From an uncultured Candidatus Rokubacteria bacterium (GTDB lineage: Bacteria; Methylomirabilota; Methylomirabilia; Rokubacteriales; DASRDR01): a DNA stretch of 64,000 nucleotides. Both the position numbers and the translations under genes were made by a program. Below are positions 9,835 to 64,000 of this stretch, one piece after another (position 1 is the stretch's first letter; each line of letters opens with the position of its first letter). A model generated the notes under the pieces. That model was not told where the DNA came from. It saw only the letters and a list, made by a program, of their open reading frames with translations, and searched no databases. The DNA lies in contig CAWDPM010000018.1 of the NCBI GenBank assembly GCA_963804185.1, positions 156,848 to 220,847 on the forward strand, given 5' to 3'.

Positions 9835-11226
<1,392 letters not shown>

Positions 11227-29558: not shown

Positions 29559-29734
29559 TGGGACCTCCTTCCTTTCCAATCCCTTTGACGGACGATGGGC
29601 AATTTTCATGCCCTCGATCGACCTCCGCTCCCGATCTTCGGTAAGACGTATTTCCGGGTGTTCTTTCGGCAGGGGACGTCAGGCTGTCGTCGCCGCGACA
29701 AGACGACACAGCCGGGAGGCAAGCGGCATGCTCT

Positions 29735-46493: not shown

Positions 46494-46722
46494 GATAAGA
46501 CCTCGCTTTCAGGATAGCGGACATCCGAGCCTCGGCAACGCGGCGCCCCTTGGATGCCACCGTGTCGCCCACACGACAGGGTGGCGCCGCAAGGCGCCGA
46601 TGGCATGCCTGCTCGGCTTCCCTCGGGTGTGACCAAGCCATCGGGCTCCTTCAAACGCCCGGGCCTCTTCACTTCGCGGGCCAACGGCCCCCCGGTGTCG
46701 TTCAAGACGTGAGGTCCCGACG

Positions 46723-46738
46723 TGGCACGTGGCTTGCG
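46723..46738 (+). promoter_or_regulatory. Candidate sigma-54 (-24/-12) promoter inside a 640-bp non-coding island
   Basis: TGGCACGtggcTTGCG matches TGGCACG-N4-TTGCW exactly. It points toward rlpA, about 400 nt upstream of its ATG. Confidence 0.3.
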
Positions 46739-47134
46739 AACCTTCGCCCGCATGACTCATCCAAGCTCGCATCGAGCCGAAACATACCGTGCGCTTCCTC
46801 GAGCCGCCGAGATTTCGGCTGCCCCCGTTGCCTTCCCGGTCCTTCGCCCCTTGCGGAACACGACGGTTACTCCACGGACCGGACTCCTGCGCTTGGCGCC
46901 GCGTCTCTCGGTCCTGCCTGGCAATCGGAAGCGGCCGAGCTGGCCAGCCATCGCCCGGGGGATGAGGGCCGCAGTGACGAGGGTGGCCGATCCCTGCATG
47001 GGCGATAACGAAGATGGTCCGCAGTGCGCCTGAGGCCCGCGCTTGACCGACGGTTGGCGAAAACTGGAAGCGGGACGAACGGTGTGCTGATCGAGGGAGG
47101 GAAGCTGCATGGCGAGGGGCGGTGATCCCGAACC

Positions 47135-47578
47135 ATGGCTCGACGCCGCGGAGCGCTCCGCACGGCTTTTCTCCTCCTGCTCGGGATTCCGGTGTTCCTG
47201 TCGGCGGGGCCACCGGTGCCGACTAGCGGTCCGGCGACGGGGGCGATCGTCCGCGTGGCTCGATCGTCCGCCACGAGTCAGGCAGGGCCGGTAGGTCGCG
47301 CCTCGTGGTACGGCGAGTTCCATCACGGCCAGCTGACGGCGTCCGGCGAGACCTTCGACATGATGCAGCTCACGGCGGCCCATCGCACGCTACCGCTTGG
47401 AACACGACTCCGGGTCACTAACCTCGAGAACGGCCGAATGGTCCGGGTGCGCGTGAACGACCGAGGCCCATACGTGGACGGCCGGATTCTCGACCTGAGC
47501 CTCGGAGCCGCGCGAGCACTGAACATGGTCGAGCGCGGTGTCGTTCCCGTGCGACTCGACATCATTGGGATGCACTGA
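47135..47578 (+). CDS. rlpA: RlpA-like septal ring lytic transglycosylase (DPBB domain)
   Basis: Signal peptide, then GRASWYGEFHHGQLTASGETFDM...LGTRLRVTNLENGRMVRVRVNDRGPYVDGRILDLS, the double-psi beta-barrel of RlpA. Confidence 0.8.
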   Translation: MARRRGALRTAFLLLLGIPVFLSAGPPVPTSGPATGAIVRVARSSATSQAGPVGRASWYGEFHHGQLTASGETFDMMQLTAAHRTLPLGTRLRVTNLENGRMVRVRVNDRGPYVDGRILDLSLGAARALNMVERGVVPVRLDIIGMH

Positions 47579-48016: not shown

Positions 48017-48841
48017 GTGAGCGGGAACCCGGCGGCGGCGCTCCGCAATGGCGCGGGATGGGAGACCGTCCTCAGGGCGCCGGCCCAGGGTCAGCACGTC
48101 GCGCAGCTCTACAGCGAGCGGCGCTTTCTGTTCCATGCGGTCGGTGAGTTCGTCGGCGCCGGCCTTCGGCAGGGTGAGGCAGTCCTCCTCATCCTGACGC
48201 CCGCCCACCGTCACCCCATCGTGCGTCAGCTCGAGGGCCAGGGGTTCACGCTCGGGGATCTCTCGCGCCGCCGGCAGCTGACCATCCTCGATGCCACGCC
48301 GACCCTGACCGAGTTGATGGTCGGTGGTCTGCCGAATCGCGAGCGTTTCCAGCTGGTGATCGGCGGAGCGGTCGAGGCGGCGAGGGCCGCCGGATATCGG
48401 AAGCTACGCTCGTTCGGCGAGATGGTGGACGTGCTGCGTCGAACCAGCCTCACCGCCACGTTGCAGCTGGAGGCGCTGTGGAGCGAGCTGGTGCTGGCTC
48501 ATGGGATGGCGCTCCTGTGTGGCTATTCGATCGACAACTTCGATCCCCATACCTACCAGGGGATCCTGCAGGGCGTCAGCAGGGCGCACTCCCATCTCGT
48601 TCCCGTCGAGGACTACGCGCGCCTGGAGCGGGCGGTGGAACGGGCCTACGCGGAGGTCTTCGGTGTCAGGCGCGACGCAGGTTTTCTGCGTCGGGCGTTT
48701 CTCGCCCACTACCCGAGACCGGCCGTGATGCCCGACGCCGAGGCGGCCATTCTCGCCGCGAGGGAGTTCGTTCCGGCGGCGGCCAGCACGCTCCTCGAGC
48801 GGATCCGGCACCACTACCAGAGCTCCACGCCGACAGCCTGA
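48017..48841 (+). CDS. MEDS-domain protein (putative sensory/regulatory)
   Basis: HVAQLYSERRFLFHAVGEFVGAGLRQGEAVLLILTP resembles the N-terminal MEDS (DcmR sensory) domain. The identification is tentative. Confidence 0.45.
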   Translation: MSGNPAAALRNGAGWETVLRAPAQGQHVAQLYSERRFLFHAVGEFVGAGLRQGEAVLLILTPAHRHPIVRQLEGQGFTLGDLSRRRQLTILDATPTLTELMVGGLPNRERFQLVIGGAVEAARAAGYRKLRSFGEMVDVLRRTSLTATLQLEALWSELVLAHGMALLCGYSIDNFDPHTYQGILQGVSRAHSHLVPVEDYARLERAVERAYAEVFGVRRDAGFLRRAFLAHYPRPAVMPDAEAAILAAREFVPAAASTLLERIRHHYQSSTPTA

Positions 48842-49209
48842 CCGTCACGCGCCGATGCCGGGCCTGACCGCCTTAGGTCAGGCGACCCAGCGGACCCAGA
48901 TCCAGCTTCAGATCTTCCGGCGTGAGACCGAACCGCCGGGCCAGTGCGCGAATGGCCCTCTCCAGCCTCAGGAGAGCTCCGGCACGAGCCAGATCGGGCG
49001 CCCGGGGAATGCTGCACGGACGGCGGCGATGGCCTCGAGCTCGGCGCCCACCCGTTGGCGCTCGAGCGCGTCCCTTGCGCTCCGAGGCGCGTGACCCGGT
49101 TCACGAGAATCTCGCCGATCGCGATGCCGCTCACTTCCAGCGCGCGCACTGCATCGCGCCCCTCTTCCACGGCCAGTGAGGCCGCCGACGAGGAGGGTGT
49201 CGAGGATGA

Positions 49210-50193
49210 TCACTCGGACTCCTGCGCGCGCTCGAGCTTCAGACGGATGTTGACGAAGTTGTACGGCGGCCAGGGCCCCGTGTAGCGGAAGGTGAGCTTG
49301 TCGTAGAGTGCGCCAACCTCCTTGACCTTCGCGTCGAAGGCCGTTTCCTTGTCCCGGGAGACGAGGAAGGCCGCGTTCATGATCATCTTGTCGCCGATGG
49401 GCTTGTTGGCGCGGGCGGCCACCGACACGTCCCGCAGCTGCGCGAAGATGTCGGATGCGTACTGATCGGTCCGCGCCTGGAGGGCCGCCTCGATCTGCCG
49501 GCCATACTGCATGCGGGCGAAGTAGGTCGAGCCCGGGACGGCCGCGATCTCGTTCTTGAGCCGCCGGATGTCCTCGTCGTCGTTCTCGATCTCGCGGACC
49601 ATGACATCCCGGTCCCACAGGACCTTGAGGCCGAACTCCACCTTGTCCTGCATCTTGTCGAGCACGTCCCGGAAAGCGTCGTAGGCGCCCCGCAGGAGCT
49701 CCACGATGTCGTCGCGCGTCTTGAACACGGTTCCGAAAGACATCGGGATCACCGTGAAGCTCTTCATCACCGTCTCGTTGACTCGCTCGTGAGCGAGGAC
49801 GTTCTCGCGCGTCGCGTCCAGCACCTCTTCCGGGGTGTCCGAGATGACCGCGGCGATCTCCCGGAAGCCGACGGTCTGGACCTCGGTCGGCTCGCCACCG
49901 AGACTGATCGCCCCGAACCGACGCGGCTCGGCGCTCCGGATGATGCAGTAGACGTACTTGGCGCGGCTGTCGGTTGATCGGCTCACGGGAGCCCCACTGC
50001 CGGGGCCGGGACGCTGCCGGAGGGGCGCCCTCGAGACGGCGTCGCCCGTCGACACGTCCGCCGCCGGTGCGCGTTTTCGCTCCACGGGGAGCTTGACGGG
50101 CGTCGCGCGCTTCGCGGCCGTCGGGGGGGGCGAGGGGAGGGGCCGTGGCGTTACCGTGCGACGGGCCCTCGGTTTCGAGGGCTTCTTCTTCAC
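49210..50193 (-). CDS. GvpF/GvpL-family protein (gas vesicle protein F/L homologue) with basic Pro/Lys/Arg-rich N-terminal extension
   Basis: It aligns to GvpF/L along the whole domain: YVYCII vs LYLYGIF, ENVLAHERVNETVMKSFTVIPMSFGTVF, VEFGLKVLWD, MIMNAAFLVSRDKETAFDAKV..LTFRYTGPWPPYNFVNI. The GTG start is about 5 nt downstream of the receiver gene stop. The N-terminal approx. 110 aa are low-complexity and basic. Confidence 0.75.
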   Translation of the reverse strand: MKKKPSKPRARRTVTPRPLPSPPPTAAKRATPVKLPVERKRAPAADVSTGDAVSRAPLRQRPGPGSGAPVSRSTDSRAKYVYCIIRSAEPRRFGAISLGGEPTEVQTVGFREIAAVISDTPEEVLDATRENVLAHERVNETVMKSFTVIPMSFGTVFKTRDDIVELLRGAYDAFRDVLDKMQDKVEFGLKVLWDRDVMVREIENDDEDIRRLKNEIAAVPGSTYFARMQYGRQIEAALQARTDQYASDIFAQLRDVSVAARANKPIGDKMIMNAAFLVSRDKETAFDAKVKEVGALYDKLTFRYTGPWPPYNFVNIRLKLERAQESE

Positions 50194-50197
50194 GACG

Positions 50198-50653
50198 TCA
50201 CCTCTCGTTCTTCGGCCGGGACTTCGGCGAATCGAGGATACGCCGGATGGCGTCCAGGAGCTGATCCGGCAAACAAGGTTTCGTGATGACGAGATCGCAG
50301 CCGGCCTCGCGAGCCGTCTGCGCGTGCTCGGGCAGGGCATGCCCGGTCAGCACGACGACGGGGATCTTCTTCGTCCGGGGGTCGCGCTTCAGGCGCCGGG
50401 TGGCCTCCCAGCCGTCCATCACCGGCAGCGAGAGGTCCATGACGATGATGTCCGGCTTGAGCGCCTCGGCCTGGCGGATAGCGTCCGCGCCGTTCTCGGC
50501 CTCGGCGACTCGGAAGCCCGAAAACTTTAGGAAGAGCACGTACACCGTCCGGTTGTCCTGGACGTCGTCCACGATTAGGACGAGCGGCCCGTTCTCGTCG
50601 CCCGCCGCCACGTCCTTCCGCGTCCCGGGCTCGGCGGCGTTCTTCGTCATCAC
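50198..50653 (-). CDS. Single-domain response regulator (CheY-like receiver)
   Basis: LIVDDVQDNRTV...IIVMDLSLPVMDGWEA...KIPVVVLTGH. There is no output domain. The ATG overlaps the kinase stop (ATGA). Confidence 0.85.
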   Translation of the reverse strand: MMTKNAAEPGTRKDVAAGDENGPLVLIVDDVQDNRTVYVLFLKFSGFRVAEAENGADAIRQAEALKPDIIVMDLSLPVMDGWEATRRLKRDPRTKKIPVVVLTGHALPEHAQTAREAGCDLVITKPCLPDQLLDAIRRILDSPKSRPKNER

Positions 50654-52791
50654 CGCTTCGACCCGAGAGGGAGGATGAGGGTGAAGATGGAGCCCTGGCG
50701 GAGCTTGCTCTCGAGGGTGATCCGACCACCAAGCACCACCGCGAGGCGGCGGGAGATCGACAGTCCGAGACCAGTCCCGCCGGCCTCCCGCGTCAGAGTG
50801 GGATCGGCTTGAGAGAAGGCCTCGAAGATCCGTGCCTGATCCGCCTCCGCGATGCCGATGCCGGTGTCGGCGACCGCGATGGCCAACTCCCGGGTCGATC
50901 TCTGGTGCGTGCAGGAGACGGTCACCGAGCCGCGCGGCGTGAACTTGAGCGCGTTCGTGAGGAGGTTCAGGAGGATCTGCTTCACCTTCTGGCGGTCGCT
51001 CCGGATCGGGGCGAGTCCCGGCGGGACATTCGCGGTCACCGCCAGGTTCGAGCGTGCGATGAGCGGCTCGACCTCGCTCATGATCTCGTCGACCAGCTCG
51101 TTCAGCTTGATCGAGGAGAGCCGAACCGGCATCTTGCCGGCCTCGATCCGCGAGATGTCGAGGATCTCGTTGATCAGGGTCAGCAGGTGGCGGCCGTTGG
51201 CGTCGATGCGGGCCAGGGACTCCCGCTGGGTCGGACCCAGCGGGCCCGAGACGCCGCGGAGGAGCAGGCTCGTGTAGCCGAGGATGGCATTGAGGGGTGT
51301 CCGCACGTCGTGGGAGACGTTGGCCAGGAACTGGGACTTGGCCACCGACGCCTGCTCCAGCTCGATGGCCTGCCGGCGGAGGAGCTCGTTCTGGTGGGCG
51401 AGCGCCGATGTCGCCTCCTGGACCCGTCGCTCGAGCTGGGCCGAGGCCGCCTTAAGCTGCTCGTAGAGCTGCTCGCGCTCGATGGCCTCCGCCCGGTCGT
51501 GAAGGATGGTGACGATGGCCGACACCTCGGCGGAGTCGCCGTACACTGTACCCGACACGGCCTCCATCGGCACCTGCTGACCCGTCTTGGGGTCGACGAG
51601 GTTCACGCCGCCGTGGTACCGCGACTGTCCGGTCTTCCCGAAGAGGAGGTTCGACACGAACGAGGTGAAGTGCGCGTCGTTCGCCTGGACGCGCTGGGTC
51701 TCGGCCGGGCTCGCGTTCTCGGAGGTGGAGAAGAGGCGCTCGGCCGGAGTGTTCATCATCACGAGGTTGCCTGAGGGGTCGGTGACGAGGATGGGATCGG
51801 CGACCGAGTCGATGACGAGATCAAGCCGGTCGCGCTCGGCCCGAACTTCCGCCTCCGTGGCGCGCAGCTTCCGGTAGTTCTCCTGGATCTCCAGGGTCGC
51901 GCGCCGGAGGTCGGACACGTTCCGCAGGATGGACACGATGCCCATGCCAATGCGCGCGTCCCCGGCCGTCGTGCTGATCAGCTCGAAGAGCAGATCCGAC
52001 CCCTCGGTGGGGTCCACCAGCGCGAGCTCGTGGGGCGCCGACCGCAGGGGCTCCACGGCGCTTCGGCCGAGCGCCGACGAGAACAGGATGTTATTGATGG
52101 CCACCGCCCGGCGGCGGCCCTCGCTCTCGTCCTCCCGCGTGGCGAAGAGGCGCTCGGCTCGCGCGTTCGCGATGACCATGCGACCCTCGGTGTCGGTCAG
52201 CATGATCGGATCGGTCACCCGGTCGAGGACGCTGTGGAGAAGATCGCGCTCTCGGCGAAGGCGCCGCTCGGCCTCGACGCTGGTGGCACTCATCCGCGCG
52301 CGCGCGAGCCGGTACCCGAGATACTCGGATGCCCATGCGAGCTCGTGCCGGTTCGCGGTGACCGGGCGGACCAGCAGTAGCCCCGTCGGCGCCTCCACTT
52401 CGGCCTGAGTGCCATGGAGCGGCATGGCCAGGATGGGCGGACGCCCGGAGAAGAGTGGCCCCGTCGTCTCCCTGGACACCACGACGGGTTGCGACGCGGA
52501 CAGGACACGGACCAGGGGATGCTCCCGCGCCTCCAGGTCGAGCGTGAAGCCGTTGACGGCTTCATGCAGAGCGCCTCGGGCCGCCAGGTGAATCAGCCGT
52601 GTTCGATCCGCGTCCAGCACGAGACAGCGGCCCTCTCGCAAGCCCGCGTGTTCCGTGAGCCACTCGAGACATCGCCGGACCATCTCGGCCGCGTCTTCAC
52701 AGGCAAGGAGAAACTCCAGGAGCGCGAGCCGCTCCTCAGGTCCCGGCTCGGGCCGTCGCGCCGGTCGCGCCGACGCAGCGCCGCGCGTCAC
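50650..52791 (-). CDS. Cytoplasmic multi-sensor histidine kinase (GAF-like + two PAS + HisKA + HATPase_c)
   Basis: No TM helices. The PAS cores are LDRVTDPIMLTDTEGRMVIANARAERLF and IDSVADPILVTDPSGNLVMMNTPAERLF. The H-box is FLANVSHDVRTPLNAILGY. N, G1 and G2 boxes are present (LLNLLTNALKFT, DTGIGI, GGTGLGLSI). Confidence 0.85.
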   Translation of the reverse strand: MTRGAASARPARRPEPGPEERLALLEFLLACEDAAEMVRRCLEWLTEHAGLREGRCLVLDADRTRLIHLAARGALHEAVNGFTLDLEAREHPLVRVLSASQPVVVSRETTGPLFSGRPPILAMPLHGTQAEVEAPTGLLLVRPVTANRHELAWASEYLGYRLARARMSATSVEAERRLRRERDLLHSVLDRVTDPIMLTDTEGRMVIANARAERLFATREDESEGRRRAVAINNILFSSALGRSAVEPLRSAPHELALVDPTEGSDLLFELISTTAGDARIGMGIVSILRNVSDLRRATLEIQENYRKLRATEAEVRAERDRLDLVIDSVADPILVTDPSGNLVMMNTPAERLFSTSENASPAETQRVQANDAHFTSFVSNLLFGKTGQSRYHGGVNLVDPKTGQQVPMEAVSGTVYGDSAEVSAIVTILHDRAEAIEREQLYEQLKAASAQLERRVQEATSALAHQNELLRRQAIELEQASVAKSQFLANVSHDVRTPLNAILGYTSLLLRGVSGPLGPTQRESLARIDANGRHLLTLINEILDISRIEAGKMPVRLSSIKLNELVDEIMSEVEPLIARSNLAVTANVPPGLAPIRSDRQKVKQILLNLLTNALKFTPRGSVTVSCTHQRSTRELAIAVADTGIGIAEADQARIFEAFSQADPTLTREAGGTGLGLSISRRLAVVLGGRITLESKLRQGSIFTLILPLGSKR

Positions 52792-52794
52792 GGT

Positions 52795-53103
52795 CTAGGC
52801 GGGCTGGGGCGTCCGCCGCGCCCCACGGGGCCGCGTGGCGCCCGAGAGTGTGGCCGCGAGTTGCGCCCGGAGGGCGGCGTTCTCGGCGAGGACGGCTTCC
52901 TGGGAGATGACCGCGGCCGTCCGTGACACTGGTGGTAGCTGCGCTACCCACTCCGAGTACCTCAGGTAGGTGTCGATCGAGGCCACCACGGCTCGTGCCT
53001 CGACCGTGATCAGGTCGATGCCCATGAGAAGTCCCTTGTCGAGGACCCGGTCGAGCAGGTCGACAAGACCGGTGCCCCGCTGTCCCGCTAGATCGGTCCG
53101 CAC
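52795..53103 (-). CDS. GvpA/GvpJ-family small protein (gas vesicle structural protein homologue)
   Basis: LVDLLDRVLDKGLLMGIDLITVEARAVVASIDTYLRYSEWV matches the GvpA core (L.dvLdriLDkG.v..........iEaR.viASveTYLryaEa). The beta-hairpin region is about 9 aa shorter than in canonical GvpA. The 45-aa C-terminal extension is GvpJ-like. Its stop abuts the kinase start. Confidence 0.7.
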   Translation of the reverse strand: MRTDLAGQRGTGLVDLLDRVLDKGLLMGIDLITVEARAVVASIDTYLRYSEWVAQLPPVSRTAAVISQEAVLAENAALRAQLAATLSGATRPRGARRTPQPA

Positions 53104-53235
53104 GTTTCGGGCCCACCCCTTTCACGCCAGTAGCGACCCGATGAGCTGAGGGGCCCCGCCGAAGGGACCGCCGCCCGCCCCGAAGACCCGATGCGGTGCC
53201 AGGATAGTCGACGACCCCGCCCACCGCAAGGTCGC

Positions 53236-53266
53236 GGGTCAGGCGTGGGTCAGGCGGGACGGTCAG
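53236..53266. promoter_or_regulatory. Triple GGTCAG direct repeat in the 500-bp leader upstream of the gvpJ-like operon
   Basis: cGGGTCAGgcgtGGGTCAGgcgggacGGTCAG with 11-13 bp spacing, 130-165 bp upstream (operon sense) of the GvpA/J-like start. Confidence 0.25.
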
Positions 53267-53600
53267 CTGGGACATGCCGCCCAAGCAAGCGGCATCGATC
53301 GTGGGATCTGACCTTCGATGCGTGCAGGGAAGCGCGATCGAGGGCTCACCCTCAGAACTGAGTTTCGAGCGCTGGGGACCGCGTTCCAAGGCAAGAGTCG
53401 ACTCTCTTGGCGCGAGCTCCTCACGGTGGGGAACGCGATCTGGCCCAGCTGATCAAGGACGGCTGTCCCAGGGATGATTTGCGCCGGCGATCGGCGTCGT
53501 GCGCTGGAGAGGCCCCGTCCGTCGCGACGATATGGCGCGTGGACGACGCACATCATAGGCCCGTCGGACGTCGGAGTGCCCGGAAGAACTCGAGCCGATT

Positions 53601-54089
53601 TCAGCTCCTGGGCCGGGGTGTCTCGCGTCCGGGCGGCGTGGGACCGTGCCGCCGGGGGATCACGGAAATCTCGCCGCTCCGCTCGAGGATGGCTTCTTCG
53701 ATGTCCTCCACGCGCGCCACCCCGTGCCGCTCGCGGGCCGAGGCCAGGATGTCGTCCATGTCGACGCGCTCACGCGCCATGTCCTCGTCCCGCGGCTTCC
53801 CGTTCCGGAAGAGGACCAGCGGCACGCCATCGATCAGGGCCTCGAGGCGCGGTGACCGTCGCTTGACCAGCGACAGCCCGATGTCCAGGAGGACCAGGGT
53901 GAAGACGATGAGTGCGGCGTTCGTGAGGGAGTAGTCGTTTCCGACCAGGCCGTTCTGGATGGCCTCGCTGATGATCAAGAGCAGCACCAGGTCGAAGGTC
54001 GTGGTGTGAGCGAGTGTCCGCTTGCCAGCCACCCGGAACAGTCCGAGCAGGAGGACGTACACGATCCCGGCCCGCACGACGGACTCCAT
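53601..54089 (-). CDS. DUF421 (YetF-like) membrane protein
   Basis: N-terminal TM pair, then the conserved DUF421 region LVLLLIISEAIQNGLVGNDYSLTNAALIVFTLVLLD and a C-terminal soluble domain. Confidence 0.65.
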   Translation of the reverse strand: MESVVRAGIVYVLLLGLFRVAGKRTLAHTTTFDLVLLLIISEAIQNGLVGNDYSLTNAALIVFTLVLLDIGLSLVKRRSPRLEALIDGVPLVLFRNGKPRDEDMARERVDMDDILASARERHGVARVEDIEEAILERSGEISVIPRRHGPTPPGRETPRPRS

Positions 54090-54107
54090 GGCCTTACCAA
54101 TCCCCGG

Positions 54108-54611
54108 CTAGGGGTAGACCCACTGGCGGAACCTCACTCCAGGTCCCGCCTCCAGGCCGATCCCCGCCCACCGCGTGCCGCTCCCCTCCGGGACAAGGTG
54201 GATCGTCACCGTCATCTGCTCCCTTGGCTCGCGCGGACTGACCTCGAATCCCCAGGTGATGCGGTCGCCGGCACCCTGGACCCGGCGCGGCGGCGGAAGC
54301 ACGCTGTCAACCTTCATCGCCTCGAGATAGGGTCGGGCTAGCCATAGAGCGAGGGTCGATGACTCCGCACTCGCCGGCCGCAGGTGTACCCGGAGAGTGG
54401 TTCGGGTATCCCGACGGACGAAGCGCTCGTAGTCCACCCGAACCGCGCCGTCCGCGCTCGTCACCGATGTCGGGCTGAGGGGGCCGGATCCCAGGAGCCC
54501 GGCGAGACCCGCCAGAAGGACGAGCGCCATCAGACCCCACGCGACTCGCTGAGCCTGCCACTCTCGTCGCAGGAACACGGCAGGGACGGCCGAATCGAGC
54601 TGTCGCTTCAC
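54108..54611 (-). CDS. Hypothetical membrane-anchored protein (167 aa, GTG start)
   Basis: One N-terminal TM helix (WGLMALVLLAGLAGLLG), then a beta-rich domain. It lies directly upstream of and co-oriented with the DUF421 gene. The longer ORF to 55115 overlaps pafA antisense and is rejected. Confidence 0.4.
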   Translation of the reverse strand: MKRQLDSAVPAVFLRREWQAQRVAWGLMALVLLAGLAGLLGSGPLSPTSVTSADGAVRVDYERFVRRDTRTTLRVHLRPASAESSTLALWLARPYLEAMKVDSVLPPPRRVQGAGDRITWGFEVSPREPREQMTVTIHLVPEGSGTRWAGIGLEAGPGVRFRQWVYP

Positions 54612-54762
54612 CGCAGCTCCTCTTTGGTGCAAGAGGGCTGCCACGGGCCCGCCCTGTCCGCGGTCACGACATGCTGTCGACTGCAACCCCGAAGTTGGCA
54701 ACGCCCCGGACTGGCCTGGCGGCTGGGGGGCACGCCCCTTGCTACCGTCTCGTCGGGTTGAG

Positions 54763-56112
54763 ATGAATCGTCGGATCTTCGGCCTCGAAAGCGAGTACGG
54801 CCTTACTTGCACGCATGAGGGCCGGCCTGTCCTGGCCCCCGATATACTCGCGCGATTCCTGTTCGAGGAAGTCGTCCCGGGTCCGAGGTATCCGAATGTC
54901 TTCCTGGAGAACGGCGGCCGGCTGTACGTGGATACCGGCTTCCATCCTGAGTACGCCACGCCGGAATGCGACGACCTCATCGAGCTCGTGGCATACGACC
55001 GGGCGGGCGAGCGGCTCGTCGAGGACCTCGTGTGGCGGGCCGATCGGCGACTCAAGAACGACGGGATCACTGGGCGAATCCAGGCGTTCAAGAACAACAC
55101 GGACTCCGCCGGCAACTCCTACGGCTGTCACGAGAACTACCTCGTGTCGCGTGGCACGCCCTTCCCCCGTCTGGTGGAGGCGCTGATTCCCTTCCTTGTC
55201 AGCCGTCAGGCCTTCGCGGGCGCCGGCAAGATCCATCGCGGCCGGCGCGGCGTGGAGTACCACCTGAGCCAGCGCGCCGACCATATCGTCGACGAGGTGT
55301 CGGGAACCACGGTGTCCGGCCGACCCATCATCGACACGCGCGACGAGCCGCACGCGGACGGCGGGCGGTTTCGCCGCCTCCACGTGATCGTCGGCGACTC
55401 CAACATGTCCGACGTGGCGACCTACCTCAAGGTCGGCACCACTGCCCTCGTGCTCGATATGGTCGAGGACGGGTTCTTCGACCAGGACGTCGGGCTCGAG
55501 TCCGCCGTCGACGCCCTGCACACCATCTCGAGGGATCCTTCGCTTCGCGAGCCGGTGCGGCTCAAGGACGGTCGCGCCTACACGGCCCTCGAGATCCAGC
55601 TCGCCTACCTGGAGAGGTGCCAGGCCCACGAGCACCGGGTCGGGGGCGACGCGACCTCGCGGGCAGTGCTGAGGCGGTGGAGCGACGTCCTGGCGGGGCT
55701 CGCGCAGGACCCGCCGGCGGCGCAGCGCGAGGTGGACTGGGCCATCAAGCGCTCCCTGATCGAGCGCTACATGACGAAGCATGCCTGCTCGCTCGAGGAT
55801 CCCCGTGTCGCCCAGCTGGACCTCCAGTACCACGACATCCGCGCGGGACGCGGTCTCTACCATCTCCTTGCCCGGCACGGCGAGGTCGGGACGCTTGTCC
55901 GCGACGAAGTTGTCGAGCGGGCGAAGCACCGCCCGCCCCAGACCACTCGGGCGCGCCTGCGTGGCGACTTCGTCCGCCGCGCGAACCTTCTGGGGTGGGA
56001 GTACCAGGTGGATTGGGCCTACGTGAGGACGCTGGGTCCGGACAGCGAGACCATCCTCTGTCCAGACCCCTTCCTTGCCCACGACGAGCGAGTGGAGCGG
56101 CTAGCGGCCTGA
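54763..56112 (+). CDS. pafA: Pup-protein ligase PafA (PafA/Dop family, carboxylate-amine ligase fold)
   Basis: MNRRIFGLESEYGLTC...YPNVFLENGGRLYVDTGFHPEYATPECD...AFKNNTDSAGNSYGCHENYLV closely tracks the PafA N-terminal and catalytic regions. The Dop deamidase alternative is not fully excluded. Confidence 0.8.
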   Translation: MNRRIFGLESEYGLTCTHEGRPVLAPDILARFLFEEVVPGPRYPNVFLENGGRLYVDTGFHPEYATPECDDLIELVAYDRAGERLVEDLVWRADRRLKNDGITGRIQAFKNNTDSAGNSYGCHENYLVSRGTPFPRLVEALIPFLVSRQAFAGAGKIHRGRRGVEYHLSQRADHIVDEVSGTTVSGRPIIDTRDEPHADGGRFRRLHVIVGDSNMSDVATYLKVGTTALVLDMVEDGFFDQDVGLESAVDALHTISRDPSLREPVRLKDGRAYTALEIQLAYLERCQAHEHRVGGDATSRAVLRRWSDVLAGLAQDPPAAQREVDWAIKRSLIERYMTKHACSLEDPRVAQLDLQYHDIRAGRGLYHLLARHGEVGTLVRDEVVERAKHRPPQTTRARLRGDFVRRANLLGWEYQVDWAYVRTLGPDSETILCPDPFLAHDERVERLAA

Positions 56113-56817: not shown

Positions 56818-57032
56818 GGCGTCAGGCGTCAGCGATCATGCGTGCCGTGACCGGGGAACCGGGAACCATCCACGCGCACCGCGTATCCATGAGGATCAGA
56901 GACGGCTCTCTTGCTGGGGTATCCGCAAGTGTCGTGCCCGCGACGCTCGGCGGCCGGCGAGGTGTCATGCATCAATACAAGACGCCACCACTGACTCGGC
57001 GTCGGCACACACCTTGCTCGGGTGACTGTGCC

Positions 57033-58115: not shown

Positions 58116-58474
58116 CCTGGGCGTCGCGCCAGTGTGTCGCAGCCGCGACCTCGCGTCGCGACGAGGATCGACAAGCGGAAGCTGCCGTCCCGGGGCTGCC
58201 TGCTCGACATTACCGGCTCGCTGCGGGCATGAGGCTTGCGTCTGCGCGAGGACGAGGTGGATGCCGCTGGCAACGTGCCGACAGCGTGGACGAGGAGGGC
58301 GTAGGTGAGACGGTGGCCACGCCTGATTGGGATGTCGTAGACGAGATTGGTCGGGCGCTTCGGCGTGGAGCAGGAGTCGGATGCCGAGGTGCGCAACTCG
58401 GAGGAGCTTTTGCGCGACCGCGACGGGCGCCGCTGGCAGCTGGAGCGTGAGGCTGCGGAGGAGAACCGCTCGGC

Positions 58475-58618
58475 ATGAAAGGACCCTGGTTCGAGATCCT
58501 CGGAGTGGCCGCCATCGTTGCGCTGGCCGTGGCTGTGTGGCGGGGGCGGCATCGGCGAAGGGGCCTCCGCATCGCGGCCGAAGAGGCCCGCATGGAGCCG
58601 GCGCCCGTCGTGTACTGA
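58475..58618 (+). CDS. Possible small single-TM protein (47 aa)
   Basis: MKGPWFEILGVAAIVALAVAVWRGRHRRRG... with an RBS-like GGAGGA 14 nt upstream. Unsupported beyond composition. Confidence 0.2.
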   Translation: MKGPWFEILGVAAIVALAVAVWRGRHRRRGLRIAAEEARMEPAPVVY

Positions 58619-60333: not shown

Positions 60334-61191
60334 TTAACCCCACCCAGCGATGAGAGAGACGAGGAGCAGGCTGATCAGCGTCGGGCCGTCGGTCGTGCGG
60401 CCCCGGCCAGTCCCAGGCGTATCGGACGCCTCCGACAGGACCCGCCTCGCACGGCCGCGCTCATAGCCCGCGCGGAACGCCGGCTCCTCGGCAGCCGGAC
60501 CATACCGGTCCCGAAGGGTCGTGCCCGTGCCCTCGAAGGGCGGGGCCTCGCGGGGCAGGCGGAACGCCGAGTCGAACCCCAGACGGTACAGCGCCTCGTC
60601 CTTGCGGAAGTCGCCGCCCTGGCGCGTGTATTCCGCCTCCTCGGCATCGCGGAGGCCGACCCACCACTCCTCGCGTGCAGCGTCGACGCTCTCCGCCCCC
60701 ATTCGGGTCATGAGCTCGCGGACCTTGCGCGCCTCCGCGTCGTCCTCTGCCATCGCGACCACGATGCTCCGCCCACTGCGCAAGGCATGGCGGTAGACGT
60801 ACAGCTCATCGGTTGGGAGTCCCTTGGAGAGCGTGTCGTCGAGCTGACTGCCGATTGCGCCCCCAGCCAGGGCCCCGATCACTCCCAGCGCGAGCGCCCC
60901 GGCCGCGAGCACGGGACCCACGCCAGGCAGGGCGAGCGATGCAACGGCGAGGCCGCCCGCCGTTCCCGCGGCCCCGCCCACTACGCTCCCGATCGTCCCG
61001 CCGATGCCCGGCTGCTCCGCGTCGGTCGTCGGCACGGCGGCCTTCAGAGTTGCCTCGGCCGGATCGGAGGATTGGACACTCGCCGGCGACAGAGCGCTGA
61101 GTCGAGCCTCGGGAATGCCGGCCGCCCGGAGGGCGTCGACAATCTGGAGCGCTGCGGAATAGCGTTGGACGACGCCAACGACTGCCTGCAT
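60334..61191 (-). CDS. Hypothetical membrane protein with glycine-zipper segment
   Basis: Gly-zipper TM region (GGTIGSVVGGAAGTAGGLAVASLALPGVGPVLAAGALALGVIGALAGGAIG), an acidic soluble region, and a C-terminal TM (LISLLLVSLIAGWG). Confidence 0.45.
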   Translation of the reverse strand: MQAVVGVVQRYSAALQIVDALRAAGIPEARLSALSPASVQSSDPAEATLKAAVPTTDAEQPGIGGTIGSVVGGAAGTAGGLAVASLALPGVGPVLAAGALALGVIGALAGGAIGSQLDDTLSKGLPTDELYVYRHALRSGRSIVVAMAEDDAEARKVRELMTRMGAESVDAAREEWWVGLRDAEEAEYTRQGGDFRKDEALYRLGFDSAFRLPREAPPFEGTGTTLRDRYGPAAEEPAFRAGYERGRARRVLSEASDTPGTGRGRTTDGPTLISLLLVSLIAGWG

Positions 61192-61760
61192 GTCCGTGTC
61201 TCCTCTCTAGCAAACTCCGCGTTGCCGAGTGAATGAGCAAGCGGGGTGCCATGCCCTTCGGCACAGTCGTTGCACCCGTTGAGCATCATGAAGCCGCGCC
61301 CGTCCGGACGACTAGAGTCGATGTCACGTGGCCAAGGCTCCGGACGTGGTCGATGCCCCGCGACTGCGCGCCCGTTAGCTGCGTTCCGGGACGTACGAGT
61401 CATTCGAAGCGTCGTCGCGGTGGCGGCCTTGGTGCTCGGCGCGTACTGCCTGATGGCCGCGGCGACCGCCCTTTACGCACAGCCTGCGCCGGGGAACCCG
61501 GATCCGCAGGAGCTGGCGGCGCGGGAACGGCACCGGTGGCCGGGATGGATCCCGGTCCTCTTCCTCGTGATCGTCGTCGGCTACGCAATCACAGTGGCGG
61601 CGCGGCGTCGGGGGTCGCGCGGCCGATCGAGCCCACCGTCCACGCAGGGTCCGCCCCCGATCGACCCGCGTCCGACGGATCGGCACCGCGACACCACGTC
61701 GCGCTGACGCCAGTCTGTCCGGCGCGTCGGAGACACCGACCCCCCCCGAGTACCCTCCGC

Positions 61761-62342
61761 TCAGGCCCGATCGGCCACGGCCTCAATTGAGCGCTTCCGG
61801 AGGAGGACGAGGGCCACGACAAAAACCAGCACCATCACAGTGAGGAGTCCTAGCTCCAGCATGGCGTGCTGGAAGACGACTCCCCCGGCCTCGGCCAACT
61901 CGGCGAACTCGGCGGTCACCACGAGGATACGGCGCGTCGCGGCGATCAAGCCGACAATGAGGAAGGGCTCCGGCACGAGTGTGTGCTCGCGGAAGGAGAC
62001 CTGGACCGTGTAGAGGAGCTCCACGATCATCACAATCAGCAGGACCCGGTCAAGCAGTTCGATGATGGCCCCCGGCATGGTGCCGGCGATGGAATGGCGG
62101 CCGAACATCAGCACCCCGTCGACCAGCAGGACCAGCGCCCCGCCGGCCAGCAGGAGGCCGAGGCCGACGTAGACCACGTCCTCGACGCGGGTGAAGGATT
62201 GCGCGATCCGATCGCGGACGGCGGGTGAGATACCGCCGGGCGCTGTCGCTCCGGCTGCCACCCGCGACGAACTCGTCTTGTCGTGCGACTGACCGTCTCC
62301 CGTCGTGGGTGACGCAGCGGCGGAACCGTGGCTACGAGTCAT
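61761..62342 (-). CDS. PsiE-family (phosphate-starvation-inducible E-like) membrane protein
   Basis: Four-TM pattern with IIELLDRVLLIVMIVELLYTV, typical of PsiE-like proteins. Confidence 0.6.
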   Translation of the reverse strand: MTRSHGSAAASPTTGDGQSHDKTSSSRVAAGATAPGGISPAVRDRIAQSFTRVEDVVYVGLGLLLAGGALVLLVDGVLMFGRHSIAGTMPGAIIELLDRVLLIVMIVELLYTVQVSFREHTLVPEPFLIVGLIAATRRILVVTAEFAELAEAGGVVFQHAMLELGLLTVMVLVFVVALVLLRKRSIEAVADRA

Positions 62343-62408
62343 TCCGGATCACGCCGCTGCGCGGGCTGGAAGAGGCTCCACAAGGTGAACGCGTGTCAGC
62401 TTACCCCG

Positions 62409-63095
62409 TCACGGCAGCTGACGGAGCGCCTGGATCCGGTCGTTCGTGCCGGGGTGCGTCGCGAACCAGCCGCCGCCCTCTCCGCCGCCCGAAGTGCGCG
62501 CCAGCCAGGTTAGCGTGTTCTCGAGGGCTTCCTTCGAAGATCCGACTCGCCGGAGCAGCTTCACCGCGTGCCGGTCCGCCTCGAGCTCCTCCGACCGGCT
62601 GTATGCCCGGGTGATCAGGGTGCCGGCGATGGGCGTGATGATGGCCGAGGTCGGGATCACCTGCTCGAGGATCGCCGCGCCGAGATCCACGCCGGCCTGG
62701 ACACGCTGGGCCTTCGCCACGTGCCCGAGGTCGTTGTGGGCGAACTCGTGGGCCATGATCGCCAGGAGTTGCTCGTCCGTGGCGCGATCCAGCAAGCCGC
62801 GCGTCACGTAGAACTCGCCACCACCTGCATTCGCGGCGTTGATGCTCTTGTCGGACATGATGCCGACCGTGACCTGCGCGGGCGGCCGGTCGGCGGCTTT
62901 GGCCAATGGCTCGACGATCCGGCGGAGCCGGGCCGCGTCCTGCTGACTGACGCGCTCCAGGGTCGGGCCGGACCGGCTCTGCCCCGTCTGGGACCCCGTG
63001 CCGTCCGGCAGGGGCACCAGTGCACAGCCCGCGGCTAGCAACCCGGTGAGTGCGACGACAAGGCCTGACGCTCGGACGGCATGCAAGGGCCGCAT
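62409..63095 (-). CDS. M48-family zinc metallopeptidase, lipoprotein
   Basis: Lipobox LLAAGCA. Zinc-binding motif HEFAHNDLGH plus downstream E (EELEADRHA). The start is chosen at MRPLHAV. Confidence 0.75.
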   Translation of the reverse strand: MRPLHAVRASGLVVALTGLLAAGCALVPLPDGTGSQTGQSRSGPTLERVSQQDAARLRRIVEPLAKAADRPPAQVTVGIMSDKSINAANAGGGEFYVTRGLLDRATDEQLLAIMAHEFAHNDLGHVAKAQRVQAGVDLGAAILEQVIPTSAIITPIAGTLITRAYSRSEELEADRHAVKLLRRVGSSKEALENTLTWLARTSGGGEGGGWFATHPGTNDRIQALRQLP

Positions 63096-63105
63096 GTCTC
63101 CCTCC

Positions 63106-63324
63106 CTAGCGTTTCCTGAACTTCGGTTTGGCGGCGCTCCAGGCGACCCGAGGTCCCTCGTCGGTCTGCATGACCATGGTGTCCTTCCGGATGGCCACGG
63201 TCGCCCGACGCTGCCGGCGAGTCTTCTGGCGCGCTGCCGACTCGACGGCCGGTCGCGCCGGCGCCTTGGGAGACCGCGAGGCTGGAGCGAGCGGGCTTCT
63301 GAGTTTCTTCTTCGTGGGTGCCAT
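63106..63324 (-). CDS. Possible small basic (Lys/Arg/Ala/Pro-rich) protein
   Basis: MAPTKKKLRSPLAPASRSPKAPARPAV...KPKFRKR has a histone-tail-like composition. It sits between the encapsulin and M48 genes on the same strand. Low support. Confidence 0.3.
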   Translation of the reverse strand: MAPTKKKLRSPLAPASRSPKAPARPAVESAARQKTRRQRRATVAIRKDTMVMQTDEGPRVAWSAAKPKFRKR

Positions 63325-63477
63325 ATGCCAGCGGTGGAGCAAGGCATGTGCCACAGGGACGCGTGGTCTTCGAGGCGCGCCGAAACTCTCGCGATACCAG
63401 TGCGGCCCGGGGCGCGCGCCACCGCGTCGTCAGGTCGACACGGTGGCGCGATTGAGGAGCAGCCGGCAGGCGGGGGA

Positions 63478-64000
63478 TCAGGCGCTCGCGGCGTCACCCT
63501 CCAGCACGCAAACCGCCTCGGGATCGAGGGTCTGGGGCGAGACGGTCTCGACGCAGAACAGATGCAGGCTGTCACGGTCGTGCGACCGGTAGCCGACCGA
63601 GAGATCGCCGCCGACGGTGAGGATGAAGTCGCCGCCCCGCATCGAGAAGAGCGCCCCGCCGTCTCGCATCACGAGAGACCGGTGGACATCGGCCACGATG
63701 GCCTTGGTGTGCCGAGTCACCGGGTAGCCGCGGTTCGCGGCCGAGAGATACGCGTAGTAGCGATCGGGAGACAGGACCGCCTCGTACGGGCCGGGCACCG
63801 TCAGCCGGTCCAGCATCTCGACAGCCCGGACGAGATCGGCGATGACGCGAGCGGGATCCGACCAGTCACCGAGCTGGAAGCGCGACGACCGCGGATCCTC
63901 GAGAAATCCGGTGCCCACGGGCTGGCCCGAGTACGCGAGGCGTTCCTCCGCGAGTCCGACCTCGCGCGCGGCGGTCTCGGCGGGCGCCGCGTCGAGCGCC
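63478..64000 (-). CDS. Family-1 encapsulin (linocin M18-like) shell protein, 3' portion. The gene continues beyond the right edge of the window.
   Basis: The C-terminus SMRGGDFILTVGGDLSVGYRSHDRDSLHLFCVETVSPQTLDPEAVCVLEG aligns with the T. maritima encapsulin [47 protein letters not shown]. The frame stays open to position 64000. Confidence 0.7.
   Translation of the reverse strand, partial: ALDAAPAETAAREVGLAEERLAYSGQPVGTGFLEDPRSSRFQLGDWSDPARVIADLVRAVEMLDRLTVPGPYEAVLSPDRYYAYLSAANRGYPVTRHTKAIVADVHRSLVMRDGGALFSMRGGDFILTVGGDLSVGYRSHDRDSLHLFCVETVSPQTLDPEAVCVLEGDAASA

Follow-up and report, generated by a model that had tools for sequence, protein, structure and literature searches.

A putative sigma-54 stress unit encoding a small basic protein, an M48 peptidase and a PsiE-like protein beside an encapsulin gene in an uncultured Rokubacteria bacterium

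INTRODUCTION

The locus described in this report raises the question of whether a small, very basic protein and a metallopeptidase that are encoded directly behind an encapsulin shell gene form part of the encapsulin system, or whether they belong to a neighbouring unit that is controlled separately. It is located at the end of a 64,000-nucleotide (nt) stretch of DNA from an uncultured Candidatus Rokubacteria bacterium (assembly GCA_963804185.1, contig CAWDPM010000018.1, positions 156,848 to 220,847 of the forward strand), and we use 'the window' below for this stretch at its full length. An earlier note on positions 63106-64000 had recognized a Family 1 encapsulin gene at the window edge, an open reading frame (ORF) of approximately 70 amino acids (aa) rich in Lys, Arg, Pro and Ala, and an M48 lipoprotein peptidase gene downstream. 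All three are confirmed by the analyses given below (Table 1), with the M48 gene sitting just outside the segment that the note had covered.

The mini-protein and the peptidase had also been regarded as members of an encapsulin operon, and on this point we arrive at a different view. The small gene has a conserved sigma-54-type promoter motif of its own, distant encapsulin pairs are followed by different genes, and the family to which the small protein belongs resides mostly away from encapsulins. The best reading of the locus is that two separate units stand next to each other, namely the end of an encapsulated ferritin (EncFtn)-encapsulin operon and a sigma-54 stress operon for the small protein, the M48 peptidase and a PsiE-like protein, and we judge this arrangement to be probable.

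Table 1. Features of the encapsulin-proximal region, in order of transcription on the minus strand of the window
Feature	Position	Strand	Basis
Family 1 encapsulin shell gene, 3' part (last 173 codons and stop)	63478..64000	-	Profile matches
Inverted repeat GCGCCACCGTGTCG-ACCTGA-CGACGCGGTGGCGC (core CACCGTGTCG-N6-CGACACGGTG, 10+10)	63415..63450	-	Conserved block
Sigma-54 (RpoN) type promoter TGGCAC-ATGCC-TTGC (-24 GG / -12 GC)	63339..63353	-	Exact consensus, conserved
Small basic protein gene, 72 aa	63106..63324	-	Coding pattern of GC (guanine plus cytosine) at third codon positions (GC3), ratio of nonsynonymous to synonymous substitution rates (dN/dS), family
M48 zinc metallopeptidase lipoprotein gene, 228 aa	62409..63095	-	PF01435
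PsiE-like membrane protein gene, 193 aa	61761..62342	-	PF06146, 34.6 bits versus gathering score of 23.9

RESULTS AND DISCUSSION

A conserved sigma-54-type motif precedes the small gene

The shell gene and the small ORF are separated by a spacer of 153 nt, and an alignment of this region from seven lineages reveals just two conserved blocks, a sigma-54 element and an inverted repeat. Within the former, GTGGCAy-N5-TTGCTCC is invariant across diverged relatives and its flanks are not conserved. The strict form TGGCAY-N5-TTGC occurs five times in the window, compared with 0.12 occurrences expected from shuffled sequences, and each of the five is positioned upstream of an ORF on the matching strand; the motif is frequent in related loci as well. 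A promoter and terminator scan of positions 62300-64000 found no sigma-70-like promoter, and the single terminator-like site that it reported, on the plus strand within the small ORF, was judged to be a chance occurrence. An Rfam scan of the whole window at gathering scores returned 0 matches, and therefore no known riboswitch or small RNA explains the intergenic conservation.

The region resembles classical sigma-54 promoters with NtrC-type enhancer sites in its exact TGGCAC-N5-TTGC sequence, in the inverted repeat that is found 54-92 nt upstream of this motif in all encapsulin-linked lineages, and in that an activator with response-regulator, AAA+ and HTH_8 domains is encoded in the window. 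This NtrC-type gene (9835-11226, plus strand) carries the GAFTGA sequence within its AAA+ domain (PF00158, E = 2e-70) along with an AAA lid, and its product is a candidate for activating some of the sigma-54 promoters of the window. The conservation and spacing of the promoter motif are observed directly, and we infer that it is used by sigma-54.

Where the locus departs from those systems is the start of the message. Classical sigma-54 genes have leaders with a Shine-Dalgarno sequence, whereas the ATG of the small ORF is located 14 nt past the C of the -12 GC in the window and 12-15 nt past it in other lineages (six lineages), and no Shine-Dalgarno sequence precedes it in the window or in the other encapsulin-linked lineages. 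Given that sigma-54 transcripts usually start about 12 nt past this C, the message for the small gene would have a leader of only 0-3 nt, and is predicted to be leaderless.

The same spacing is encountered elsewhere. Among 63 non-redundant sigma-54 motifs from the window and the fetched loci (L001-L059), 23 are followed by a first ATG within 12-18 nt, a spacing that occurs at 5.7% of random positions (p = 2.5e-13), and 21 of these 23 closely spaced ATGs open ORFs of at least 50 aa. In the window such starts are seen for an MltD-like gene (20843), a topoisomerase IB gene (57033) and a membrane protein gene (61289), and other sigma-54 motifs (e.g. 61237-61251) are followed by normal leaders with GGAGG. 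These counts suggest that leaderless sigma-54 transcripts are widespread in these Methylomirabilota. A limited text search of the literature found no description of a sigma-54 promoter combined with a leaderless start.

The inverted repeat as a candidate enhancer site

The second conserved block lies approximately 30 nt past the shell stop codon and approximately 80 nt upstream of the -24 element. When folded as RNA, the block is predicted to give a hairpin with a stem of 15 bp (-35.8 kcal/mol, z = -5.2) and no U-tract. GC-rich hairpins of this type are common 3' ends in high-GC bacteria, and, together with the location of the repeat just behind the shell gene, the stability of the stem would fit an explanation wherein the repeat is just an intrinsic terminator or mRNA-stabilizing stem-loop of the encapsulin operon, with no promoter role. 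We regard this explanation as possible but doubtful. It is the sequence of the arms that is conserved, with changes that are one-sided rather than compensatory. In addition, a second, almost identical repeat (GCCACCGTGTCG-CCCACA-CGACAGGGTGGC, 46558-46583, plus strand) is located not behind a co-oriented gene but upstream of a divergent gene start, 165 nt before an exact sigma-54 motif (46723-46737, plus strand), and at several further sites a related palindrome has a sigma-54-like motif at a distance of 40-170 nt. The two roles are also compatible with each other. Because the repeat is conserved without compensatory changes and recurs near sigma-54 motifs, we favour a role as a site for an enhancer-binding protein, perhaps combined with a terminator function.

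Near the second repeat, an ATG located 14 nt past the GC of the motif at 46723-46737 opens a 93-aa ORF (46752-47033, plus strand) that has no family match and only a weak coding signal, and that precedes an RlpA-like DPBB gene (47135-47578, plus strand). For the region from 46752 to 47033, a long leader, a small gene and an RNA are all conceivable.

The small ORF is a coding gene of an undescribed family

The product of the small ORF contains 9 Lys, 12 Arg, 13 Ala and 8 Pro residues, and has a pI of 12 and a net charge of +17. GC fractions at codon positions 1, 2 and 3 are 0.62, 0.62 and 0.81, a pattern expected for coding sequence in a genome of 69% GC, which supports the existence of a real gene. 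The frame is kept in the orthologues of four other lineages, with pairwise dN/dS values of 0.30-0.41, and of 0.64 against the closest relative. In encapsulin-linked copies, variation is found in the N-terminal half, and the C-terminal part contains the strongly conserved sequence VRKDTT(V/I)(M/L)QT..GPR(V/A)AWSA(A/S)KP.F.K(R/Q).

Alternatively, the peptide itself might matter little, and the ORF might act mainly in cis as a leaderless upstream ORF that couples ribosomes to the start of the M48 gene. Behind the small-ORF stop codon the sequence reads GGGAGGGAGAC-ATG, with this ATG being the M48 start 10 nt downstream, the N-terminal half is poorly conserved, the dN/dS value rises as high as 0.64 against the closest relative, and some lineages have a deleted or frameshifted ORF while the promoter and the M48 gene persist. 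However, strong conservation of the last 30 residues extends to subfamilies that reside in unrelated operons with ordinary Shine-Dalgarno sequences, the overall dN/dS value is 0.3-0.4, and the M48 gene has a strong Shine-Dalgarno sequence of its own, such that coupling is not needed. We therefore consider a mainly cis-acting role unlikely. Judged from its sequence, the small ORF is a real, coding gene that is under purifying selection.

Of 1.84 billion representatives that were searched exhaustively with a profile, 61 matched at E <= 1e-3; these are mostly of 55-85 aa, and their alignment yields the consensus RSxKAGRPP-x8-PRVRRRxKTAxxAVRKDTTLLQTxxGPRxxWxAxxPKxKKR. Matches in genomes are all from Methylomirabilota/Rokubacteria, except for one metagenome-assembled genome labelled 'uncultured bacterium' and one false positive from Steroidobacteraceae. 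The family appears to be unnamed and undescribed, and in the searches run here was found in Methylomirabilota only. The window protein has no Pfam, NCBIfam or PDB match, 36 family members have no match in Pfam, and a profile search of the PDB likewise returned none.

Modelling with AlphaFold2 from an alignment of 36 sequences gave a predicted local distance difference test score (pLDDT) of 67.7 and a predicted template modelling score (pTM) of 0.26 for a chain that is mostly extended with one weak helix, and the protein is predicted to be largely disordered. A Tat or Sec signal was ruled out, as the sequence has no hydrophobic stretch. Given that there is no signal sequence, the protein would be cytoplasmic.

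The likeness to histone-like tails that was proposed earlier holds for composition but does not extend to homology, in that no family of Pfam, NCBIfam or the PDB was matched. The same resources revealed no homology to HU, H1-like or Lsr2 proteins, and the window protein has no R-G-R-P AT-hook core. Other small basic proteins linked to stress include AT-hook proteins, the Lys/Ala/Pro-rich tails of actinobacterial HU/HupB proteins, and Escherichia coli Sra. The window protein is likewise small, has a pI of 12, is predicted to be disordered, and belongs to a family found in stress-gene neighbourhoods, but there is no detectable homology. The resemblance is an analogy and does not imply membership. 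A K-A-G-R-P-P stretch, reminiscent of the G-R-P core of AT-hook proteins, is present in most of the wider family. At this place the window copy reads KAPARP, with no GRP, and encapsulin-linked copies read KAPARP or KAPAQA as opposed to the KAGRPP of the family.

The usual home of the family is a stress cluster

Using the small protein as the point of entry, we collected 46 loci from genomes and metagenomes, the latter scanned with an alignment of four sequences as the query, and recorded the neighbours within 3 kb. CBS-domain genes are present at 21 loci, genes for DksA/TraR zinc-finger proteins at 16 and HSP20 genes at 11, on the same strand throughout. A few loci have P-type ATPase, USP or DUF6335 genes, also on the same strand. 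The DksA/TraR gene is typically found about 170 nt downstream of the small-protein gene, and this tight pairing may hint at a role related to RNA polymerase. An encapsulin gene together with an M48 gene is present at one of the 46 loci (L014, from the genome closest to the window). From these contexts, the window copy appears to be a diverged paralogue that has been placed ahead of an M48 gene, with the usual home of the family being a stress cluster in the order HSP20, CBS, small protein and DksA/TraR.

A same-strand cluster consisting of HSP20, two or three CBS genes, the small protein and DksA/TraR is seen at L012, L016, L017, L022, L033, L036, L045, L048 and L058, among others. Sigma-54 motifs often head the HSP20-CBS clusters (e.g. 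at position 1844 of L020 and position 3340 of L026).

From the polycationic and disordered nature of the protein, and from the presence of its family beside HSP20, CBS, USP and DksA/TraR genes, we infer that it is a cytoplasmic, stress-induced binder or protectant of a polyanion, be it DNA, RNA or ribosomes. In our view, it neither serves as cargo of the encapsulin nor acts as a partner to the exported protease.

The small gene is not always retained behind the shell gene. Among lineages whose shells are 83-95% identical, and in L014, the adjacency of the encapsulin gene, small ORF and M48 gene is conserved, and downstream of EncFtn-shell pairs at 59-66% shell identity there are unrelated genes (an ABC permease in one case, an MBL hydrolase in another). 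In L005 (8937-9025), only 16 codons of the small ORF are left (MQNPRENLRARLDGRA, followed by a stop codon) behind an intact sigma-54 motif. In L010 (5882-6114) and L011, which are identical in sequence and come from two farmland samples, a frameshift removes the conserved C-terminal tail of the protein. The shell gene, the promoter and the M48 gene are all kept in these lineages despite the loss of the small ORF.

The encapsulin gene and its expected cargo

The shell frame is open at the window end (63478-63999) and encodes 173 aa with no internal stop, whereas the 97 codons at its 5' end and the cargo gene fall past the edge. This fragment passes the curated cutoffs of both Family 1 models, with 101 bits (cutoff 24; E = 7e-29) against positions 99-252 of 253 in PF04454 (Linocin_M18), and with 115 bits (cutoff 100) against positions 96-261 of 261 in NF041155 (encap_f1). 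Its identity to a metagenomic shell protein of 270 aa (P0001) is 95% over residues 98-270 of the latter, and in a PDB profile search the closest solved shells were those of Thermotoga maritima, Haliangium ochraceum and similar species (E values of 1e-31 to 1e-35). One shell match originates from Solirubrobacterales. Together with the high GC content and the Pup ligase described below, this match might point to an actinobacterial origin of the DNA, a reading that was rejected because the genome matches are from Methylomirabilota/Rokubacteria; the sigma-54 machinery agrees with the latter.

An exact look-up of the product of the window's M48 gene had nothing on record, and an exact search of metagenome contigs with 71 nt of DNA returned 0 matches. 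The upstream side was examined in the syntenic relatives (contigs L001-L011 and L014), whose shells are 83-95% identical to that of the window. Their gene order is GlgX, TreY, an EncFtn-like gene, the shell gene, the intergenic region, the M48 gene and usually PsiE. The EncFtn-like gene encodes 125-132 aa, and the shell gene begins on its stop codon. Its product passes TIGR04535 (138 bits, cutoff 125) and matches solved EncFtn chains with E values of 1e-33 to 1e-37. In every syntenic relative an EncFtn ending in VTVGSLRG(R)R stands directly 5' of the shell gene, and the pair, with its targeting peptide, recurs in every relative over the range of 59-95% shell identity. The C-terminus (...SVTVGSLRGRR) lies within a disordered tail and fits the published targeting-peptide pattern for ferritin-like proteins, L/F-x-V/I-G-S/T-L/I (PMC11202242).

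The earlier expectation that a cargo gene with a targeting peptide should lie just upstream is upheld for the ferritin-like option, as found in every syntenic relative. A DyP peroxidase cargo, which had been offered as the other option, was rejected on account of the EncFtn genes in all of them. Judged from the synteny of these relatives, the cargo in the genome of the window would be an encapsulated ferritin. The system resembles the EncFtn Family 1 systems of Rhodospirillum rubrum (5da5) and Haliangium ochraceum (7odw/7oe2; PMC5012862, PMC8791618) in that Family 1 shell models are passed and that, in the relatives, the EncFtn gene is located upstream, overlaps the shell start and specifies a peptide of the VTVGSL type. 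There is no notable difference in the system itself, although in this clade the pair follows GlgX-TreY.

In L001 (2504-7569), the EncFtn-encapsulin pair is located 46 nt downstream of genes for GlgX (TreX) and malto-oligosyltrehalose synthase (TreY). This proximity suggests that iron sequestration may be co-expressed with trehalose synthesis.

Could the small protein nonetheless be a secondary cargo or a shell-associated part, e.g. one that neutralizes the lumen or nucleates mineral, with EncFtn, encapsulin, small protein and M48 forming one operon? The lumen of Family 1 encapsulin shells is generally acidic and could bind a polycation, and the adjacency described above among shells of 83-95% identity and in L014 is what would be expected in such a case. 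However, the targeting pattern is found nowhere in the 72 aa, whose C-terminus reads ...AWSAAKPKFRKR / ...GPRVAWSAAKPKFRKR (consensus from PMC11202242), 45 of the 46 small-protein loci have no encapsulin, and the distant EncFtn-encapsulin pairs have no small protein. Moreover, the small gene stands behind its own promoter motif, and was lost in L005 and L010/L011 while the encapsulin was kept. We consider a part in the shell to be very improbable. Judged from its genes, the encapsulin system here would be ordinary EncFtn iron storage.

The M48 peptidase and the PsiE-like protein

The M48 protein matches PF01435 with 100.6 bits (E = 1e-28), and has an HEFAH sequence at residue 116 and a lipobox (LAAGC) at residues 20-24. 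Its ATG is preceded by the Shine-Dalgarno sequence GGGAGGGAG. Like the LoiP/YggG-type M48 outer-membrane lipoproteases (and BepA and HtpX), it combines an HExxH M48 domain with a lipobox signal peptide in a protein of about 230 aa. However, its best NCBIfam match, LoiP (NF052399), reaches just 63 bits and is far under the cutoff of 365, and the protein is therefore a generic M48 lipoprotein and not a LoiP equivalog.

The PsiE-like gene is located 66 nt downstream of the M48 gene on the same strand. An M48-PsiE order recurs in L005, L006-8 and L014, and the PsiE-like gene is probably the last gene of the M48 unit.

Other sites in the window

Several additional sites have sigma-54-like motifs. 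Two motifs stand divergently and back to back at 61237-61251 (minus strand) and 61259-61273 (plus strand). On one side of them is a 285-aa gene (60334-61191) that has a weak YflT-like match and a normal leader with GAGGAGA. On the other side, a small membrane protein likely starts at ATG 61289, which is 14 nt past the GC, and not at the GTG (61246) given in the ORF list. Another sigma-54-like sequence, CGGCAC-N5-TTGC (57003-57017, plus strand), is positioned 15 nt before ATG 57033 of a 360-aa topoisomerase IB. The 434-aa ORF that opens at GTG 56811 is probably too long, given that the topoisomerase IB proteins of relatives have 361 aa. A bacterial Top1B under sigma-54 control would be unusual.

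A palindrome of the type described above (58134-58163) and a sigma-54-like motif (58225-58239, plus strand) precede a DUF6335 gene (58268-58493, plus strand). The tblastn matches to DUF6335 are split between two frames (58268-58360 in one, 58359-58493 in the other), pointing to either a frameshift or an error in sequencing. At 29684-29713, the palindrome GTCAGGCTGTCG-N6-CGACAAGACGAC adjoins the sigma-54-like motif GGGCATGAAAATTGC (about 29599-29613, minus strand), which is followed by a normal leader with GGAAGGAGG.

A stress- or dormancy-type cluster extends from 48017 to 56112. It includes genes for a MEDS sensory-domain protein (48017-48841), a GvpL/GvpF gas-vesicle protein (49210-50340), a PAS histidine kinase (50650-52791), a YetF/DUF421 protein (53601-54089) and a PafA-like Pup ligase (54739-56112). 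Pupylation genes are noteworthy outside Actinobacteria and Nitrospirae.

Proposed arrangement and its implications

In the arrangement that we propose, the first unit would be the end of a standard EncFtn-encapsulin iron-store operon, possibly co-transcribed with GlgX-TreY, wherein EncFtn would oxidize Fe(II) and would be loaded into the shell by means of its C-terminal VTVGSLRG peptide. The second unit would begin approximately 125 nt past the shell stop codon at the sigma-54 promoter, which is probably activated by an enhancer-binding protein from the inverted repeat approximately 80 nt upstream. Its transcript would begin at or within approximately 3 nt of the small-gene ATG and run through the M48 and PsiE-like genes. 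Of the three products, the small polycation would stay in the cytoplasm and bind or protect a polyanion during stress or dormancy, the M48 protein would be an exported lipoprotein protease that presumably serves envelope protein quality control, and PsiE would be an inner-membrane stress protein.

Several points weigh against this proposal. The hairpin that the repeat would form in RNA just behind the shell gene is very stable, and could be a mere 3' stem-loop or terminator. The AT-hook-like GRPP motif is lost in encapsulin-linked copies of the small protein, which weakens the case for DNA binding by the window copy. The small gene is dispensable at this position, as seen from its deletion in L005 and its frameshift in L010/L011. 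Furthermore, the cargo gene for exactly this genome is known only by way of its relatives, and the sigma-54 start site, leaderless translation and the co-transcription of the small gene with M48 and PsiE are predictions. With these caveats in mind, we continue to regard two separate units as the probable arrangement.

A broader reading, which we offer tentatively, is that the sigma-54 promoters of this lineage are routinely leaderless, with an ATG 12-18 nt past the GC, and that a subset of them might be controlled by a single activator that binds GnCACnnTGTCG-N6-CGACAnnGTGnC. Such a dormancy or desiccation regulon might include M48, DUF6335, gas-vesicle and cell-wall genes, as well as the undescribed family of disordered polycations of 55-85 aa, which would protect nucleic acids or ribosomes.

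As for the encapsulin, it is a further example of an EncFtn system, here from an uncultured soil phylum, and is not new in itself. The family of small proteins is real, unannotated and often uncalled, and is a candidate for addition to annotation resources. If mapping of 5' ends confirms leaderless sigma-54 messages, this would affect the prediction of gene starts in these genomes, and would raise the question of how open-complex formation by sigma-54 and leaderless initiation by 70S ribosomes are combined.

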